DNA of 6,321 bases from a virus (Duplodnaviria; Heunggongvirae; Uroviricota; Caudoviricetes). Made by a program: the position numbers and the translations under genes. Every line of letters begins with the position of its first letter. Positions within the stretch are counted from its first letter, which is position 1. This document shows, piece after piece, positions 1 through 6,321 of this stretch. The stretch is from the IMG/VR virus record IMGVR_UViG_2681813201_000017. One strand, 5' to 3'. The notes under the pieces are model-generated. The model had not been told where the DNA came from, ran no database searches, and worked only from the letters and a program-made list of their open reading frames with translations.

Positions 1-50
1 GCGCCGGGAATGGCGCGGTCTGCAGAAAATGAGGCAGGAAAACGCATGCA

Positions 51-83
51 AAGCCATGCACCTTATCGATGCATGGCTTTTTT
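51..83. terminator. Rho-independent terminator-like hairpin, probably bidirectional, stronger on the + strand
   Basis: Perfect 10-bp stem (51-60 aagccatgca / 70-79 tgcatggctt) with 9-nt loop, followed on + strand by a T-run 78-83. On the - strand the stem is followed by tttgcatgcgtttt, a weaker U-tract. Lies just downstream of the psu stop (114). Confidence 0.55.
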
Positions 84-113
84 CAGTAAAAACGGGCGGA
101 TTTTCGGGGAATT

Positions 114-686
114 TTACACAGACTGACGTGATGCCAGTTGCGCACTTTTACGCGAAAAAATCATGTTCTGCGCAGGGGTGAATTTTTCACGGCTGTCATC
201 CACAGAAGCCGCGTCAGGCCTGAATCCGATAGTCGTTAAAATGTCGCTATCCTGTGCGGAATAATTAATTTTTTCACCCTTCGCAAGCCAGGACAGGAGG
301 GCTTCACGCAGGGCATCTGTGGCACGCTGTATGGCACAGTTTCGGGCAATGGCCGTCAGCTCACTGTAGCCCATCAGCTCCGGTGCCAGTGCCGCCGCCA
401 GTGCTGTGCCGTGCTGCTGCATAAAATCATTCAGCCGGTCGCGGATGCTGATGTGCTGAACGGCTTCATGCGAACGAATATAACGACCGGCGGCCTGATT
501 CACCTGCCATTTTCTGACTTCGATAATATTGCGTAATTCGTCCAGGCGACTGACGTTTCTGCCTTCTCCTGACAGAAGCCGCAGGTATTCCTGTTCGGCC
601 GCTGCCAGCTCATTTTTGCGTTGCAGCCATGCTGCTTTGTTATTCTGACAGGTGTCAAAGGCCTGCTGTAAGGCTGTGCTTTCCAT
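114..686 (-). CDS. psu: Psu, polarity suppression protein (Rho antagonist / capsid decoration) of P4-type satellites, 190 aa
   Basis: ORF of exactly 190 aa as in P4 Psu; N-terminus MESTALQQAFDTCQNNKAAW matches my recollection of P4 Psu; last gene of the sid-delta-psu operon order; AGAGA-type RBS upstream of ATG at 686. Confidence 0.9.
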   Translation of the reverse strand: MESTALQQAFDTCQNNKAAWLQRKNELAAAEQEYLRLLSGEGRNVSRLDELRNIIEVRKWQVNQAAGRYIRSHEAVQHISIRDRLNDFMQQHGTALAAALAPELMGYSELTAIARNCAIQRATDALREALLSWLAKGEKINYSAQDSDILTTIGFRPDAASVDDSREKFTPAQNMIFSRKSAQLASRQSV

Positions 687-759
687 CGTTATCTCTTTCT
701 CATCATGCTGAAGAATAAAAATACGGTGTGCGGCGACGGCCGGGGTTAACCGGCAGCCT

Positions 760-1260
760 TCATTCCAGACGCAGCGAATATGATTGTGTTTTTAACCGTA
801 CTGGCGGCAGTTCCTGTTTTTCATGCAGGCGTTCTGCCAGTTCGTCCGGCGTGACCGGGCGGACAATGAAGCGGGTGATGGTCTGAAGCGTTTTAAACAC
901 CAGACCACAGCCCGGATCCGTGCACACATAAAAACGCTCGGTGACTTCCTGAGACAGACGCCGCGATGTTCTTGACAGTGCAAGGCCTTTACATCTCCGA
1001 CAACAATATCCGGTAACAAGCATTCTTTTCGGGCGTTTCATACTGCCGGAGGCTGACGTCAGTGAATCGCGGTATCTCTGTTTGCCTGAAATGTATTCCA
1101 TTCCTGAATCTTTACAGTCAGAGAAAAAGCTTTCACTCGCTTCAAATGTCGCAGAGCAATAAATATTCCGGCACTGTGCAATCATTATCTTGGTGCCATC
1201 GTCCATGAAATGTGCGCGACGGGTGTGAGCAACATGTCCACACGACGGGCAGTAAATCAT
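760..1260 (-). CDS. delta: Delta, late-gene transcriptional activator with two tandem Ogr-type zinc-finger domains, 166 aa
   Basis: Start chosen at ATG 1260 (MIYCPSCGH...) rather than the ORF-track start at 1317, because this ATG overlaps the sid stop (ATGA at 1257-1260) and gives the 166 aa expected for P4 Delta. Two Cys4 modules are visible (CPSCGH...CRNIYC and CRRC...CTDPGC), as in Ogr/Delta. Confidence 0.85.
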   Translation of the reverse strand: MIYCPSCGHVAHTRRAHFMDDGTKIMIAQCRNIYCSATFEASESFFSDCKDSGMEYISGKQRYRDSLTSASGSMKRPKRMLVTGYCCRRCKGLALSRTSRRLSQEVTERFYVCTDPGCGLVFKTLQTITRFIVRPVTPDELAERLHEKQELPPVRLKTQSYSLRLE

Positions 1261-1991
1261 GACAGCAGTCCTCTGGCCTTCAGCTCTGCTCCCTGCTGGT
1301 CTATTTTGTCCTGCCACACCTTGCGCTGTGCCGGTGTGCCTGCCACCTCATAATCCATGTGCGGAAGTGTTGCCGCTGACAGTCCGGTCAGCCGGAGAAC
1401 CGGCTCACCGGTGAGGCTGATTTGCATCTGTTTAATTTTCTGTTCCAGCGATGATTTCACCTGCTGCATGACAGCCTTTTCCGGTGCGACATAGCCCTGA
1501 TGGCCGGTGGTGTTGGCGAGCGGATTTTCCTGTACCAGGATGCTCAGATGCATTGCCCGGACAAGCGCCTCACAGGTTTCATTCAGGGCGTGTTCCAGCT
1601 CATGCTCTGCATACAGACTCAGAAGATGATGATGTGCCTTCCGGTAGGCGGTGGCCGTGCTGTCACACGCCCCTTTCAGGCGTTCACGTTCAAAATTCAG
1701 CACCACGGCCAGATTGTCATATTCCTGTACCAGCTCCCGGCGTGCCACGCGCTCAATGTGGCGCTGTTTCAGCTCGTCGCTCAGGACACCACCGGCTGCA
1801 CGAAAGGCCGTGCGCCAGTCGTCAGCATCGTTTCCGTCGGCCTGCGTCAGCGCATTTTTTTCCTGCTCTGCCCGTTCAATGGCCGTGACGGTCTCATCCA
1901 TCAGGCGGGCGTTCTCAAGATGAGCGACTCTGGCCTTTTCCAGTTGTGCCAGTGCGGGTTGCAGATATTCAGGGATGGTGTTGTCAGACAT
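1257..1991 (-). CDS. sid: Sid, external scaffold protein that redirects helper capsid assembly to small size, 244 aa
   Basis: Start chosen at ATG 1991 (MSDNTIPEYLQ...) with GAGGAG RBS 2001-2006 on the - strand, giving 244 aa as in P4 Sid; the ORF track extends 6 codons further upstream (2009) without an RBS. Stop overlaps delta start. Confidence 0.9.
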   Translation of the reverse strand: MSDNTIPEYLQPALAQLEKARVAHLENARLMDETVTAIERAEQEKNALTQADGNDADDWRTAFRAAGGVLSDELKQRHIERVARRELVQEYDNLAVVLNFERERLKGACDSTATAYRKAHHHLLSLYAEHELEHALNETCEALVRAMHLSILVQENPLANTTGHQGYVAPEKAVMQQVKSSLEQKIKQMQISLTGEPVLRLTGLSAATLPHMDYEVAGTPAQRKVWQDKIDQQGAELKARGLLS

Positions 1992-2025
1992 TTTCCGGCT
2001 CCTCGTCACTTCAGGTTAAGAAAAT

Positions 2026-2043
2026 TGTGACGTACACCGGACA
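2026..2043. promoter_or_regulatory. TGT-N12-ACA dyad, candidate Ogr/Delta activator site of a late promoter
   Basis: TGT at 2026-2028, 12-nt spacer, ACA at 2041-2043, centre about 2034.5. Lies 35-50 bp upstream of the sid ATG (1991) on the other strand. Orientation and assignment (sid promoter versus a divergent rightward late promoter) cannot be settled from sequence alone. Confidence 0.4.
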
Positions 2044-2063
2044 ACAACACGACGCATTGCAGA

Positions 2064-2081
2064 TGTGCCAGCCCTGACACA
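2064..2081. promoter_or_regulatory. Second TGT-N12-ACA dyad, candidate Delta/Ogr site for the sid promoter
   Basis: TGT 2064-2066, 12-nt spacer, ACA 2079-2081, centre about 2073.5. If the site is centred near -55 as in P2/P4 late promoters, the leftward transcript would start near 2019, leaving a leader of about 28 nt before the sid ATG at 1991. Confidence 0.45.
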
Positions 2082-2140
2082 GGAGACTCATCCTCAGACC
2101 GGCAAGCCAGGAAAAGGTCGCAGGAAAAACCGGCTTACTG

Positions 2141-2178
2141 TTTGTTTTTTTATATTTTACTGTTCACCTCTGTTCACC
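2141..2178 (+). repeat. AT-rich tract plus two direct TGTTCACC octamers (alpha-binding type I iteron sequence), ori-like
   Basis: tgtttgtttttttatattttac (2141-2160, AT-rich) followed by TGTTCACC at 2161-2168 and 2171-2178, a 10-bp register. The same octamer recurs in the cluster downstream of alpha. The array abuts the N-run, so further copies may be hidden. Confidence 0.5.
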
Positions 2179-2187
2179 TTAAGAAAA

Positions 2188-2262
2188 NNNNNNNNNNNNN
2201 NNNNNNNNNNNNNNNNNNNNNNNNNNNNNNNNNNNNNNNNNNNNNNNNNNNNNNNNNNNNNN
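2188..2262. other. Run of 75 N (unresolved or masked sequence)
   Basis: Directly visible in the sequence; ORF-track reading frames that cross it are artefacts. Confidence 1.
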
Positions 2263-2317
2263 ACGATCCCATTATGCCGCGAGTCAATGGTAGCTCAGGC
2301 GGGGCAGCCTCCGGGCT

Positions 2318-2345
2318 GGCCGGTATTCTTCGAGGCCGGTATTCT
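2318..2345 (+). repeat. Tandem direct repeat GGCCGGTATTCT x2 (2318-2329 and 2334-2345) in the leader of the rightward operon
   Basis: Two perfect 12-nt copies 16 nt apart, separated by tcga. Position corresponds to the immunity region of P4-type elements, where short sequences pair with the CI antisense RNA; assignment is inference. Confidence 0.35.
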
Positions 2346-2358
2346 CACCCCCGTCTGG

Positions 2359-2400
2359 GCTATCGCCATCGAGCGTGAGAACTCCGGCGATAGCAGTTAT
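2359..2400 (+). promoter_or_regulatory. Hairpin (9-bp stem, 18-nt loop) followed by a U-rich stretch; candidate attenuator or terminator upstream of the first rightward ORF
   Basis: gctatcgcc (2359-2367) pairs with ggcgatagc (2386-2394); followed by cagttatttgct. It sits immediately before the AAGGAGG RBS at 2411-2417. Confidence 0.3.
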
Positions 2401-2424
2401 TTGCTACTCGAAGGAGGCTGCCTT

Positions 2425-2622
2425 ATGGCTACAACCCTTACCCCCTCACACCCTGAATTTGTCTTTGTGTTTGCGGCTGTCCGTCGCGCAGACCGTCATC
2501 CCCGTATCTGTATGCTTCGCACCGTCGCCGGTGATGAACGCAGTGCCCGCCGTTCCCTTGTCCGTGACTATGTGCTCTCCCTTGCTGCCCGTCTGCCGGT
2601 GGTGGAGGTGTCCCGTGCGTAA
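2425..2622 (+). CDS. Small 65-aa protein, first ORF of the rightward (early/left-operon-like) transcription unit; occupies the position of kil in P4
   Basis: ATG 2425 preceded by strong RBS AAGGAGG (2411-2417, 7-nt spacing); stop TAA 2620-2622 overlaps the GTG start of the next ORF. Identity with P4 Kil is inferred from position only. Confidence 0.45.
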
Positions 2623-2902
2623 TAAAAAAGCCCCTCAGACCGTCTCAGCGCGTCATGACGCCCGTGAACACCTCAGCATTGAGGCTTACCATAAGCTCAA
2701 CCGCGCCAGCGCCGTATCCCAGTTTGTTGGGGGTGATTTGATTCACCGTGAACTCTCCGGCCTGCATCAGCTCTACATTCCGCATATTTTCAGCTACCTG
2801 AATGAAGATATTGATTTTGTGCTGAATGAACTGAAAGCCAAAGGCCTGTGCCGCGATTTTCTCGCCCAGCAGAAAGACCGGGGAGACAGGACGCATGTTT
2901 GA
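2615..2902 (+). CDS. 95-aa protein at the position of P4 Epsilon (helper prophage derepression); start at GTG
   Basis: GTG 2615 preceded by GGAGG (2604-2608, 6-nt spacing). The longer ORF-track version (from 2375) has an N-terminal part that overlaps the 65-aa ORF in another frame and lacks an RBS. Stop TGA 2900-2902 overlaps the ATG of the next ORF. Size and synteny fit Epsilon; I cannot verify the sequence. Confidence 0.5.
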
Positions 2903-3350
2903 TTTTCCCCAGCCCGGTGAGATTTACCGTTCTGCCGGTTTTCCCGATGTGGCCGTGGTCGGCATTCTGGAAGACGGTATTCCGTGGGAAATGCCGTACC
3001 GCTGCCCGGAAATTGTCTGGAACCCGTACCGCCGTAAATTCAGTATCCTTGTGCGTATCCTCGCTGACGGACGCACCACAGACATCCCGCTGGGGCGTTT
3101 TCTGCGGGAATTTACCTGTGACCGTCCTGACCTGTTTAAACGCAGCCCCGTAAACCGGCATGCGGTACTGAAAGAAATGGCCGGAGACCCGGAATTACAG
3201 AAATGGCGGGAAAAATATCTGGATATTTACCCGCAGGACACTGTTCCGGTCAGCCGGGCAGCACCGGTGGCGCGGGAATGGCGGGAAATTCCCCGCACGG
3301 AGCCTGACCCGGAAACCACCCCGGATAACAGTTACCGCAATTATCTGTAA
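2895..3350 (+). CDS. 151-aa hypothetical protein (size and position of P4 orf151), function unknown
   Basis: ATG 2895 with GGAG 2882-2885 upstream; start overlaps the stop of the preceding ORF (ATGTTTGA); uninterrupted 151 codons in a compactly packed operon. Confidence 0.7.
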   Translation: MFDFPQPGEIYRSAGFPDVAVVGILEDGIPWEMPYRCPEIVWNPYRRKFSILVRILADGRTTDIPLGRFLREFTCDRPDLFKRSPVNRHAVLKEMAGDPELQKWREKYLDIYPQDTVPVSRAAPVAREWREIPRTEPDPETTPDNSYRNYL

Positions 3351-3378
3351 TTAAAAAACGACCCCCGAAAAATTAAAT

Positions 3379-3404
3379 GTGCGTATTCGCGCAGGGATAC
3401 GCAC
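3379..3404. promoter_or_regulatory. Inverted repeat / hairpin in the intergenic region between the 151-aa and 106-aa ORFs
   Basis: gtgcgtat (3379-3386) pairs with atacgcac (3397-3404), 8-bp stem and 10-nt loop. There is no T-run on the + strand; on the - strand it is followed by atttaatttttcggggg, so as a terminator it is oriented against the operon. Confidence 0.35.
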
Positions 3405-3423
3405 GTCTTCAGGAGACGCAGAT

Positions 3424-3489
3424 ATGCCTTATCAGTTAATGCAACCGGCACGGAATGCAGTCATCTGTCACAGGGAGAAAAGCAAATGA
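3424..3489 (+). CDS. Candidate 21-codon upstream ORF / leader peptide ([21 protein letters not shown]) coupled to the 106-aa ORF
   Basis: ATG 3424 preceded by AGGAG (3411-3415, 8-nt spacing); stop TGA 3487-3489 overlaps the ATG 3486-3488 of the next ORF (ATGA). Confidence 0.25.
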
Positions 3490-3806
3490 AAACACCCTTA
3501 CCGCCCGTCTTACGCGCTGCCCTTTACCGTCGCGCTGTCGCCTGTGCCTGGCTGACCGTGTGCGAACGTCAGCACCGCTACCCGCATCTCACCCTTGAGT
3601 CACTGGAGGCGGCCATCGCCGCTGAGCTGGAAGGCTTTTATCTGCGCCAGCACGGTGAGGAAAAAGGGCGTCAGATAGCCTGTGCCCTGCTGGAAGATTT
3701 AATGGAATCCGGCCCCCTGAAGGCCGCGCCGTCGCTGTCCTTTCTCGGGCTGGTTGTGATGGATGAACTCTGTGCCCGTCACATAAAAGCGCCGGTACTG
3801 CACTGA
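3486..3806 (+). CDS. 106-aa hypothetical protein immediately upstream of alpha, function unknown
   Basis: ATG 3486 with GGGAGA upstream; ends 14 nt before the alpha start; same strand and compact operon arrangement. Confidence 0.65.
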
Positions 3807-3820
3807 AGGAGAACAACACC

Positions 3821-6154
3821 ATGAAAATGAACGTAACCGCCACCGTCAGCCATGCGCTCGGCCACTGGCCGCGTATTCTCCCGGCGCTGGGGATTCAGGT
3901 GCTGAAAAACCGTCATCAGCCCTGTCCGGTCTGTGGCGGGAGTGACCGCTTCCGTTTTGATGACAGGGAGGGGCGCGGCACCTGGTACTGCAATCAGTGT
4001 GGTGCCGGTGACGGCCTGAAACTGGTTGAAAAGGTGTTTGGTGTTTCCCCGTCCGACGCGGCCGCAAAGGTGGCTGCCGTGACCGGCAGCCTGCCCACGG
4101 CTGACCCGGCAGTGACGGCCGCCGCCGGCGCTGAAACAGACGCTGCCCGGAAGAACGCCGCCGCACTGGCACAAACCCTGATGGCAAAAACCCGTCCCGG
4201 AACCGGTAACGCCTACCTGACCCGCAAGGGCTTTCCCGGCCGGGAATGCCGGATGCTGACCGGCACACACAGAGCCGGTGGCGTGAGCTGGCGCGCCGGT
4301 GACCTTGTGGTGCCACTGTATGACGACAGCGGCGAACTGGTTAACCTTCAGTTAATCAGTGCTGACGGCCGTAAGCGCACCCTGAAAGGCGGACAGGTCA
4401 GGGGCACCTGTCACACCCTTGAAGGACAGAATCAGGCCGGAAAACGTCTGTGGATAGCGGAGGGATACGCGACCGCACTTACCGTACATCACCTGACCGG
4501 TGAAACGGTGATGGTGGCGCTTTCTTCCGTGAACCTCCTTTCTCTGGCCAGCCTTGCCCGGCAGAAGCATCCGGCCTGTCAGATTGTCCTTGCCGCAGAC
4601 CGTGACCTCAGCGGTGACGGCCAGAAAAAAGCCGCCGCAGCCGCAGATGCGTGTGAGGGCGTTGTTGCCCTGCCGCCGGTCTTCGGTGACTGGAATGATG
4701 CCTTCACGCAGTACGGCGGGGAGGCCACCCGTAAGGCCATTTATGATGCCATCCGGCCACCGGCTGAAAGCCCGTTCGATACCATGAGCGAAGCGGAGTT
4801 TTCCGCCATGAGTACCAGCGAAAAGGCCATGCGTATCTATGAGCATTACGGCGAGGCGCTCGCGGTCGATGCCAACGGCCAGCTTCTGTCCCGCTATGAA
4901 AATGGTGTCTGGAAGGTGCTGCCGCCACAGGACTTTGCCCGGGATGTGGCCGGGCTGTTTCAGCGTCTGCGCGCGCCGTTCTCCTCCGGGAAGGTGGCCT
5001 CCGTGGTGGACACCCTGAAGCTGATTATTCCGCAGCAGGAAGCCCCCTCCCGCCGCCTGATTGGCTTTCGTAACGGCGTGCTCGACACGCAGAACGGCAC
5101 GTTCCACCCGCACAGTCCGTCACACTGGATGCGCACCCTGTGCGATGTGGATTTCACCCCGCCGGTGGACGGTGAAACGCTGGAGACCCACGCCCCCGCG
5201 TTCTGGCGCTGGCTTGACCGTGCCGCCGGTGGCCGTGCGGAAAAACGCGACGTGATTCTGGCCGCACTGTTTATGGTGCTGGCAAACCGCTACGACTGGC
5301 AGCTCTTTCTGGAGGTGACCGGTCCCGGCGGCAGCGGCAAAAGTATCATGGCCGAAATAGCCACCCTGCTGGCCGGGGAGGATAACGCCACGTCGGCCAC
5401 CATCGAGACGCTGGAATCCCCGCGTGAACGTGCCGCGTTAACTGGCTTCTCACTGATACGCCTGCCGGACCAGGAAAAATGGAGCGGCGACGGAGCCGGA
5501 CTCAAGGCCATCACCGGCGGCGATGCGGTGTCCGTTGACCCGAAATACCGGGATGCGTACTCCACGCATATCCCGGCGGTGATTCTGGCCGTGAACAATA
5601 ACCCGATGCGCTTCACCGACCGCAGCGGCGGCGTGTCACGCCGGCGGGTGATTATTCACTTCCCGGAACAGATAGCCCCGCAGGAGCGCGACCCGCAGCT
5701 TAAGGACAAAATCACCCGCGAGCTGGCGGTCATCGTGCGTCACCTGATGCAGAAGTTCAGCGACCCGATGCTCGCCCGGTCACTGCTTCAGTCCCAGCAG
5801 AACTCAGACGAGGCACTGAACATCAAACGGGATGCCGACCCGACGTTTGATTTTATCGGCTATCTGGAAACCCTGCCGCAGACCAGCGGCATGTATATGG
5901 GGAACGCCAGTATCATCCCGCGTAATTACCGTAAATACCTCTATCACGCCTATCTGGCCTACATGGAGGCAAACGGCTACCGGAATGTACTCAGTCTGAA
6001 AATGTTCGGGCTGGGGCTGCCGGTGATGCTGAAGGAATACGGACTGAATTACGAGAAGCGCCATACCAAACAGGGGATACAGACCAACCTGACGCTGAAA
6101 GAGGAAAGCTACGGCGACTGGCTGCCAAAATGTGACGACCCTGCAACAGCCTGA
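3821..6154 (+). CDS. alpha: Alpha, bifunctional DNA primase-helicase and origin-binding replication protein of P4-type satellites, 777 aa
   Basis: 777-aa ORF with AAGGAG RBS (3806-3811). N-terminal zinc-ribbon CPVCGG...CNQCG (nt 3923-4000), primase motif EGYATA (nt 4460-4477), Walker A GPGGSGKS (nt 5321-5344). N-terminus MKMNVTATVSHALGHWPRILPALG matches my recollection of P4 Alpha. Confidence 0.95.
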   Translation: MKMNVTATVSHALGHWPRILPALGIQVLKNRHQPCPVCGGSDRFRFDDREGRGTWYCNQCGAGDGLKLVEKVFGVSPSDAAAKVAAVTGSLPTADPAVTAAAGAETDAARKNAAALAQTLMAKTRPGTGNAYLTRKGFPGRECRMLTGTHRAGGVSWRAGDLVVPLYDDSGELVNLQLISADGRKRTLKGGQVRGTCHTLEGQNQAGKRLWIAEGYATALTVHHLTGETVMVALSSVNLLSLASLARQKHPACQIVLAADRDLSGDGQKKAAAAADACEGVVALPPVFGDWNDAFTQYGGEATRKAIYDAIRPPAESPFDTMSEAEFSAMSTSEKAMRIYEHYGEALAVDANGQLLSRYENGVWKVLPPQDFARDVAGLFQRLRAPFSSGKVASVVDTLKLIIPQQEAPSRRLIGFRNGVLDTQNGTFHPHSPSHWMRTLCDVDFTPPVDGETLETHAPAFWRWLDRAAGGRAEKRDVILAALFMVLANRYDWQLFLEVTGPGGSGKSIMAEIATLLAGEDNATSATIETLESPRERAALTGFSLIRLPDQEKWSGDGAGLKAITGGDAVSVDPKYRDAYSTHIPAVILAVNNNPMRFTDRSGGVSRRRVIIHFPEQIAPQERDPQLKDKITRELAVIVRHLMQKFSDPMLARSLLQSQQNSDEALNIKRDADPTFDFIGYLETLPQTSGMYMGNASIIPRNYRKYLYHAYLAYMEANGYRNVLSLKMFGLGLPVMLKEYGLNYEKRHTKQGIQTNLTLKEESYGDWLPKCDDPATA

Positions 6155-6161
6155 CCCACCT

Positions 6162-6186
6162 GACCGGCATCTGCCGGTCTTTTTTT
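6162..6186 (+). terminator. Rho-independent terminator of the alpha operon
   Basis: GC-rich hairpin gaccggc-atct-gccggtc (6162-6179) immediately followed by tttttttat (6180-6188), 8 nt after the alpha stop codon (6152-6154). Confidence 0.8.
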
Positions 6187-6204
6187 ATCCCTGAATTCCC
6201 CGAA

Positions 6205-6296
6205 GGTGAACAATCCACTGTTCACCCTTCACCGTATATTCACCCGTTATCACACTGAAATTAAAAGAGAAAAACGAAAGGTGAACAGTGTGAACA
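6205..6296. repeat. Cluster of TGTTCACC-type iterons in both orientations downstream of alpha (crr-like cis replication region)
   Basis: GGTGAACA 6205-6212 (inverted), TGTTCACC 6219-6226, degenerate cCTTCACC 6226-6233 and TaTTCACC 6237-6244, GGTGAACA 6280-6287, tGTGAACA 6289-6296. The first two form an inverted pair GGTGAACA-atccac-TGTTCACC. An A8/T6 tract follows at 6304-6320. Confidence 0.6.
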
Positions 6297-6321
6297 ATCA
6301 AATCAAAAAAAACTTTTTTCT

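Follow-up and report, generated by a model that had tools for sequence, protein, structure and literature searches.

The stretch of DNA analysed here (the window, 6,321 nucleotides) raises the question of what stands behind a run of N in the control region of a P4-type satellite. The run is single and occupies exactly positions 2188–2262 (75 bases), no other N being present anywhere in the window, and it lies between ori-like iterons and the leader of a rightward operon, as stated in a preliminary description made from the letters of the window. That description judged the interval between sid and the first rightward ribosome-binding site to be too short for a P4-type element, and offered three readings: the run stands for a longer segment, conceals an RNA gene similar to it in length, or belongs to a reduced control region. 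The first is the best supported, with 813–888 nt at this place in relatives and the features of a collapsed-repeat draft scaffold in the record itself. The run is probably an assembly gap over an ordinary, full-length P4 control module, rather than a biological feature.

The window is the whole of GenBank record JZDY01000137.1 (6,321 bp), with the N-run included at the same place, and this record is part of assembly GCA_000965565.1, the draft genome of the E. coli STEC strain St. Olav172. The strain was sequenced with MiSeq 2x300 reads, assembled using SPAdes 3.5.0 (coverage cut-off of 20 and minimum contig of 500 bp) and assessed for quality using REAPR, and many small contigs were ascribed by the authors to phage and mobile-element sequences (PMC4432327). 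The partial 119-aa product that starts at the edge of the gap matched this record alone, while the X-containing ORF 2065–2622 gave no match. Because the run is found in a deposited short-read draft record, it is a gap or a mask in a scaffold. The 75 N are unlikely to have arisen through masking of adaptors, through false merges by FLASH or through insertion of an IS. An engineered P4 vector, considered on account of an AflII site arising from T to G at 2183, was rejected, since five natural viral contigs whose intervals are full-length have the same variant.

The readable part of the window comprises a leftward late operon, sid-delta-psu, and a rightward operon, epsilon-orf151-orf106-alpha, followed by crr, which is the arrangement of a P4-type satellite (Table 1). 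P4 itself (NC_001609 / X51522) has the same gene order and orientation, with 98% nucleotide identity over both window flanks, and its layout (sid - ori - PLL - vis (orf88) - PLE - eta/kil - cI - epsilon - orf151 - orf106 - alpha - crr) agrees, as do the relatives, with the late promoters, vis, early promoter and CI RNA that the preliminary description had named for P4. The TGTTCACC iterons of ori and crr and the CI RNA of P4 are at places homologous to those in the window; the P4 record annotates ori repeats at the positions homologous to window 2161–2178, and the window holds five matches to TGTTCACC vs 0.2 expected by chance. The psu product is identical to the protein of one relative (L009, the second of two P4-like islands of E. 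coli O145:H28, termed locus 2 below), the alpha product is identical to the O145:H28 locus 2 protein, and the sid product has identical copies in many E. coli genomes.

Table 1 Features of the window, with coordinates, strand and evidence
Feature	Position	Strand	Evidence
psu, polarity suppression / capsid decoration, 190 aa	114..686	-	ORF list; Pfam Psu in relatives
delta, Ogr/Delta zinc-finger late activator, 166 aa	760..1260	-	ORF list; Pfam Ogr_Delta on identical protein
sid, capsid size determination, 244 aa	1257..1991	-	ORF list; P4 annotation
First two of six P4 ori type-1 iterons, TGTTCACC	2161-2168 + 2171-2178	+	Pattern search
75-N run, assembly gap or masked stretch	2188..2262	.	Deposited draft scaffold JZDY01000137.1
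Last 20 nt of leader 5' of CI, ACGATCCCATTATGCCGC-GAGTC	2263..2282	+	Sequence searches
CI immunity RNA gene, Rfam C4 antisense RNA RF01695	2283..2370	+	cmscan
seqC target CTCGAAGG, overlapping GGAGG ribosome-binding site	2403..2415	+	Complementary to seqB
3' part of eta/ash (Phage_ASH), residues 84-196 of 196	2263..2622	+	Pfam, BLASTP
epsilon, helper derepression protein, 95 aa	2615..2902	+	Pfam Derepression E = 7.7e-51; P4 annotation
orf151	2895..3350	+	ORF list; P4 annotation
orf106 (DUF5375)	3486..3806	+	ORF list; P4 annotation
alpha primase-helicase, 777 aa	3821..6154	+	ORF list
First crr repeat copy, with TGTTCACC iterons at 6205, 6219, 6280	6200..6321	.	Pattern search

The interval is really anomalously short. 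Between the sid start codon (1991, minus strand) and the GGAGG motif at 2411–2415 there are 196 + 148 = 344 nt of real sequence, which bears out the earlier remark on its length, and the ORF list contains no vis-like ORF of 88 aa in these 344 nt. No sigma-70-like promoter was detected in window 1900–2700 by a promoter scan that finds PLE in L009. From position 2187 to the start of the CI gene the window has 95 nt, vs 833–888 nt in 110 of 110 related loci.

Alignment to P4 and its relatives, as had been proposed, gives the gap a size: its equivalent measures 856 nt in L001 (the other O145:H28 island, locus 1), 848 nt in L009 and approximately 858 nt in P4, with collinear flanks in all three, so that about 858 nt of P4 are missing in the window. 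In complete E. coli genomes, sampled by an even draw of 60 from 987 matching genomes and counted where the match spans the whole query (57), the equivalent has a length of 813–869 nt in 57/57, and a HTH/AlpA regulator (vis) is annotated in all 57. The segment that relatives carry here is composed of four more type-1 ori iterons and three type-2 repeats, vis (Pfam AlpA), an isrK-family leader of 77–78 nt with a terminator and a c4-a1b1 target (seqA), and the first 83 codons of eta/ash. Directly after vis, the promoter scan of L009 places a candidate with the sequence TTGCCT-18-TATAGT; this sigma-70-like site is taken to be PLE. None of vis, PLL and PLE is in the visible window sequence, and all are present at the homologous place in every relative; in the window they are either concealed by the run or deleted.

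Both flanks of the gap end mid-feature. On the left, two of the six type-1 ori iterons are seen; a complete P4 ori comprises six type-1 and three type-2 repeats, and the remainder would be within the run. On the right, eta/ash is cut at the gap and is without its N-terminal 83 codons: the visible part is identical to L009 residues 84–196 (BLASTP, 113/113), and the Pfam Phage_ASH match covers profile positions 48–107 only. An internal ORF of 65 aa within eta/ash begins with the ATG at 2425, with GGAGG (2411–2415) upstream. A short form of the interval was found neither among the 110 related loci nor among the 57 sampled complete genomes; the preliminary description had reasoned that the gap would be uninformative if the true sequence were only 75 nt, with neither RNA-like structure nor promoter, and close relatives showed the same short interval, and none of these loci shows it. 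With flanks that end mid-feature and no relative of the short form, the reading as a reduced control region is not supported.

The CI RNA gene is not masked by the N-run and is readable directly to the right of the gap. The covariance-model search suggested earlier gave a match of the C4 family (RF01695) at 2283–2370, with 74.3 bits vs a gathering score of 45 (cmscan, E = 1.2e-13), covering the full model (positions 1–87 of 87), and the family also matches the homologous place in P4, L009 and L024. This family of antisense RNAs includes C4 of P1/P7 and CI of P4, with the targets c4-a1b1 (RF03163) and isrK (RF01394). The window resembles it in the full-length model match and in a loop complementary to a downstream target over the ribosome-binding site, and differs in that the upstream target seqA falls within the gap.

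It is extremely improbable that the control region is short but complete and that the run conceals just one RNA gene of some 75 nt, CI or another small RNA. The length would suit an isrK-like RNA, for which the model has 77 nt and matches the PLE leader in the segment missing from the window. However, CI is fully visible, which disposes of it as the masked gene. The isrK-like leader of relatives is separated from the left edge by 693 nt and from the right edge by 77 nt, a position that is not collinear with a 75-nt slot. The isrK/seqA-like leader is accompanied within the missing segment by about 770 further bases, and the flanks cut ori and eta mid-feature.

The preliminary description had also placed the lineage-specific immunity determinants in the gap. 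The main ones, seqB and seqC, are instead readable to its right; the upstream target seqA is outside the visible window sequence and in relatives lies within the gap segment. The seqB loop of CI, ATTCTTCGAG at about 2326–2335, is complementary to seqC, CTCGAAGG, over the ribosome-binding site. Among relatives the three elements seqA, seqB and seqC covary, giving at least five immunity types. The element is of the CTTCGAG/CTCGAAGG immunity type and not of the P4 type, the corresponding seqB/seqC pair being CTGTGAA/TTCACAGG in P4; the O145:H28 islands have the same CI, seqB and seqC as the window. The complementarity and covariation agree with the published mechanism, quoted in PMC4825925 and PMC10111431, by which CI RNA pairs with seqA and seqC, leading to transcription termination, and the role of seqC as a CI target comes from literature quoted in PMC4825925. 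By analogy with the P4 literature, CI would act in the same way in this element.

The covarying heptamers that define these types are CTGTGAA, CTTCGAG, CGATAAC, CGTTAGA and CTTGAAG, and the seqA/seqB/seqC series is a clear natural covariation for CI-target pairing. O145:H28 locus 1 is an immunity hybrid, with a P4-type seqA (TTCACAG) and the window-type seqB/seqC (CTTCGAG/CTCGAAGG); the hybrid region is at 4165–4522 of L001 and is also present in L013, L016 and L120. Judged by complementarity, the CI RNA of locus 1 should pair with seqC and not with seqA. Another mismatch among seqA, seqB and seqC, unlike that of L001, occurs in L167. The immunity hybrids have their recombination border immediately 5' of the CI gene.

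Two P4-like islands are present in complete O145:H28 genomes: locus 1 (L001/L206), located at tRNA-Sec beside the LEE, and locus 2 (L009), adjoining LysE/scpA genes. The flanks of locus 2 are 99.86% and 99.93% identical to the window, and 8/8 visible proteins are identical. At 4/4 flank positions where the window differs from locus 2 (outside 2263–2282) it has the locus-1 allele, so that it mixes alleles of both loci, and its ends coincide with the borders of their identity. These borders were taken from the related complete genomes RM12581 and 16003, not from St. Olav172: in RM12581, the exact k-mers common to both islands extend from window position 1 to 6321, except that their sharing stops at 2178 and resumes at 2281, bracketing the gap at 2188–2262; strain 16003 has the same identity borders at both window ends. 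The two pieces of the window extend 9 and 18 nt past the canonical borders of copy identity. Both loci have the full interval of 848–856 bp with vis and PLE, whereas the window has 75 N and a unique stretch of 20 nt.

The N-run thus stands in a short-read draft from a scaffolding assembler, with ends and gap coinciding with copy-identity borders of related genomes, and the window ends together with the internal break are, on sequence comparison, the signature of a collapsed two-copy repeat. At its right end, the contig stops at the last base of the first crr copy. This stop coincides with the start of divergence between the two O145:H28 islands; crr of relatives (L009 12380–12679) consists of two 120-nt direct repeats that are approximately 81% alike.

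Other assemblies break at the same place. In L198–L203, as in the window, N-runs or contig starts are found directly 5' of the CI gene. L198 and L202 are ENA metagenome scaffolds with breaks at the same right border as the window; about 180 nt are represented by 100 N in L198 and 32 nt by 10 N in L202, the length of the run being unequal to the true missing length in both of these comparable scaffolds. Four other public contigs, among L199–L203, start at the CI gene. The gaps of L198 and L202 differ from that of the window in that they hide only 32–180 nt and keep vis; the window is missing approximately 780 nt more.

In the assembly-gap reading, the scaffold would be a collapsed consensus of two nearly identical P4-type islands of the O145:H28 kind, in which the assembler may have merged the parts common to both copies and failed over the differing stretch of about 850 bp. 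The hidden sequence of St. Olav172 would then be of full length, the 75 N standing for the rest of ori, PLL, vis, PLE, the seqA/isrK-like leader with its terminator, and the start of eta/ash. In such a module, vis would be an AlpA-type regulator and PLE a constitutive early promoter; CI RNA would be processed from the PLE leader transcript, as in P4, and its seqB loop would pair with seqA upstream (hidden) and seqC downstream (visible), bringing about termination before epsilon and alpha. The N may alternatively have been written by REAPR, in replacement of a flagged stretch.

With a paired-end-only library, SPAdes normally cannot bridge 850 nt. If the 75 N are a distance estimate from SPAdes, the paired-end-only library therefore hints at a truly short spacing in some molecules, and such an estimate should be roughly right. 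This bears on a possible but unlikely alternative, in which one St. Olav172 copy has undergone a real deletion or rearrangement (about 780 bp) that extends from within ori almost to the CI gene, with approximately 75 nt that the assembler could not resolve. Such a copy would be without vis, PLL, PLE, seqA and the greater part of ori and, with both flanks ending mid-feature, would amount to a defective remnant, silent and unable to replicate, rather than a working hub in reduced form. The interval is subject to natural rearrangement: strain WWCOL-236 (L205, NZ_CP178552.1) carries an IS21-family insertion (istA/istB) in the ori region, between sid and vis. About 3% of the matching complete genomes are without a contiguous match. 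Against a deletion, however, are the lack of any short form in the 110 loci and 57 sampled complete genomes, the full-length intervals at both loci in all complete O145:H28 genomes examined, the otherwise intact element, with proteins identical to those of full-length relatives, and the collapsed two-copy signature, a setting in which joins are unreliable. In L205, the ash gene downstream of the IS21 insertion is annotated as partial.

The 20 nt at the right edge of the gap (2263–2282) also favour a deletion, being unique, rich in indels and absent from every collection searched. They differ from all 15 leader variants in relatives. By exact match, a 28-mer of the right edge is absent from 5426 complete E. 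coli genomes and IMG/VR, as well as from GTDB (one genome per species) and the JGI metagenomes; a 21-mer has no exact match in the viral, genome and metagenome collections, and none of the complete E. coli genomes aligns from the first base right of the gap. A 16-mer returned 84 viral matches, which were set aside as nearly all are from one unrelated phage family and none is in a P4 context. The unmatched 20 nt, together with the pieces that extend past the identity borders, would fit a strain-specific rearrangement. The 18-mer ACGATCCCATTATGCCGC is present in an unrelated phage family (L034–L117, IMG/VR contigs of about 50 kb) in a different context, and its occurrence there is judged to be a coincidence.

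The same 20 nt could instead be the visible end of a rare fourth type of leader and immunity module, as yet absent from the databases and hidden by the gap, which is very unlikely. The leader 5' of CI is indeed modular among relatives, with three main types and several hybrids, and compared with types A and B the window leader is 15 nt shorter between ATCC and GAGTC (the alignment anchor being uncertain), a shortening that keeps the eta reading frame. The absence of the 28-mer from all collections would nevertheless be odd for a circulating module, and the CATTATGCCGC core of 2263–2282 matches type B, though in another reading frame. We regard it as quite unlikely that St. Olav172 has a true deletion derivative, or a copy with a rare fourth leader module, in which the CI gene and the entire replication operon survive while their promoters, vis, seqA and most of ori have been lost or replaced; if it did, a copy making CI RNA by read-through could be a pure immunity decoy against incoming P4-like satellites.

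An assembly artefact, not new biology, is the most likely explanation of the short control region of the window. All that can be read is standard for P4 and already known from it and its relatives, and the control hub behind the gap is a textbook one; new from the readable part is only the assignment to the CTTCGAG/CTCGAAGG immunity type. As a caution for other drafts, N-runs in draft STEC scaffolds mark sites of divergence between co-resident satellite copies, and no biological conclusion can be drawn from their length.

Two further observations concern the wider distribution and content of these islands. A Sid-based scan of genome contigs returned only L118 (URND01000141.1), a 6.8-kb contig in a MAG labelled uncultured Clostridiales UMGS1151; its layout is P4-like and its sid 99% identical, and it most likely entered this MAG from E. 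coli as a binning contaminant. Beyond psu, to the left of window position 1, the content of L014–L033 differs from island to island and includes defence-type genes (HamA with a helicase, reverse transcriptases, SIR2, GAPS4 and OLD/UvrD-like pairs); this stretch is a known P4 defence hotspot.
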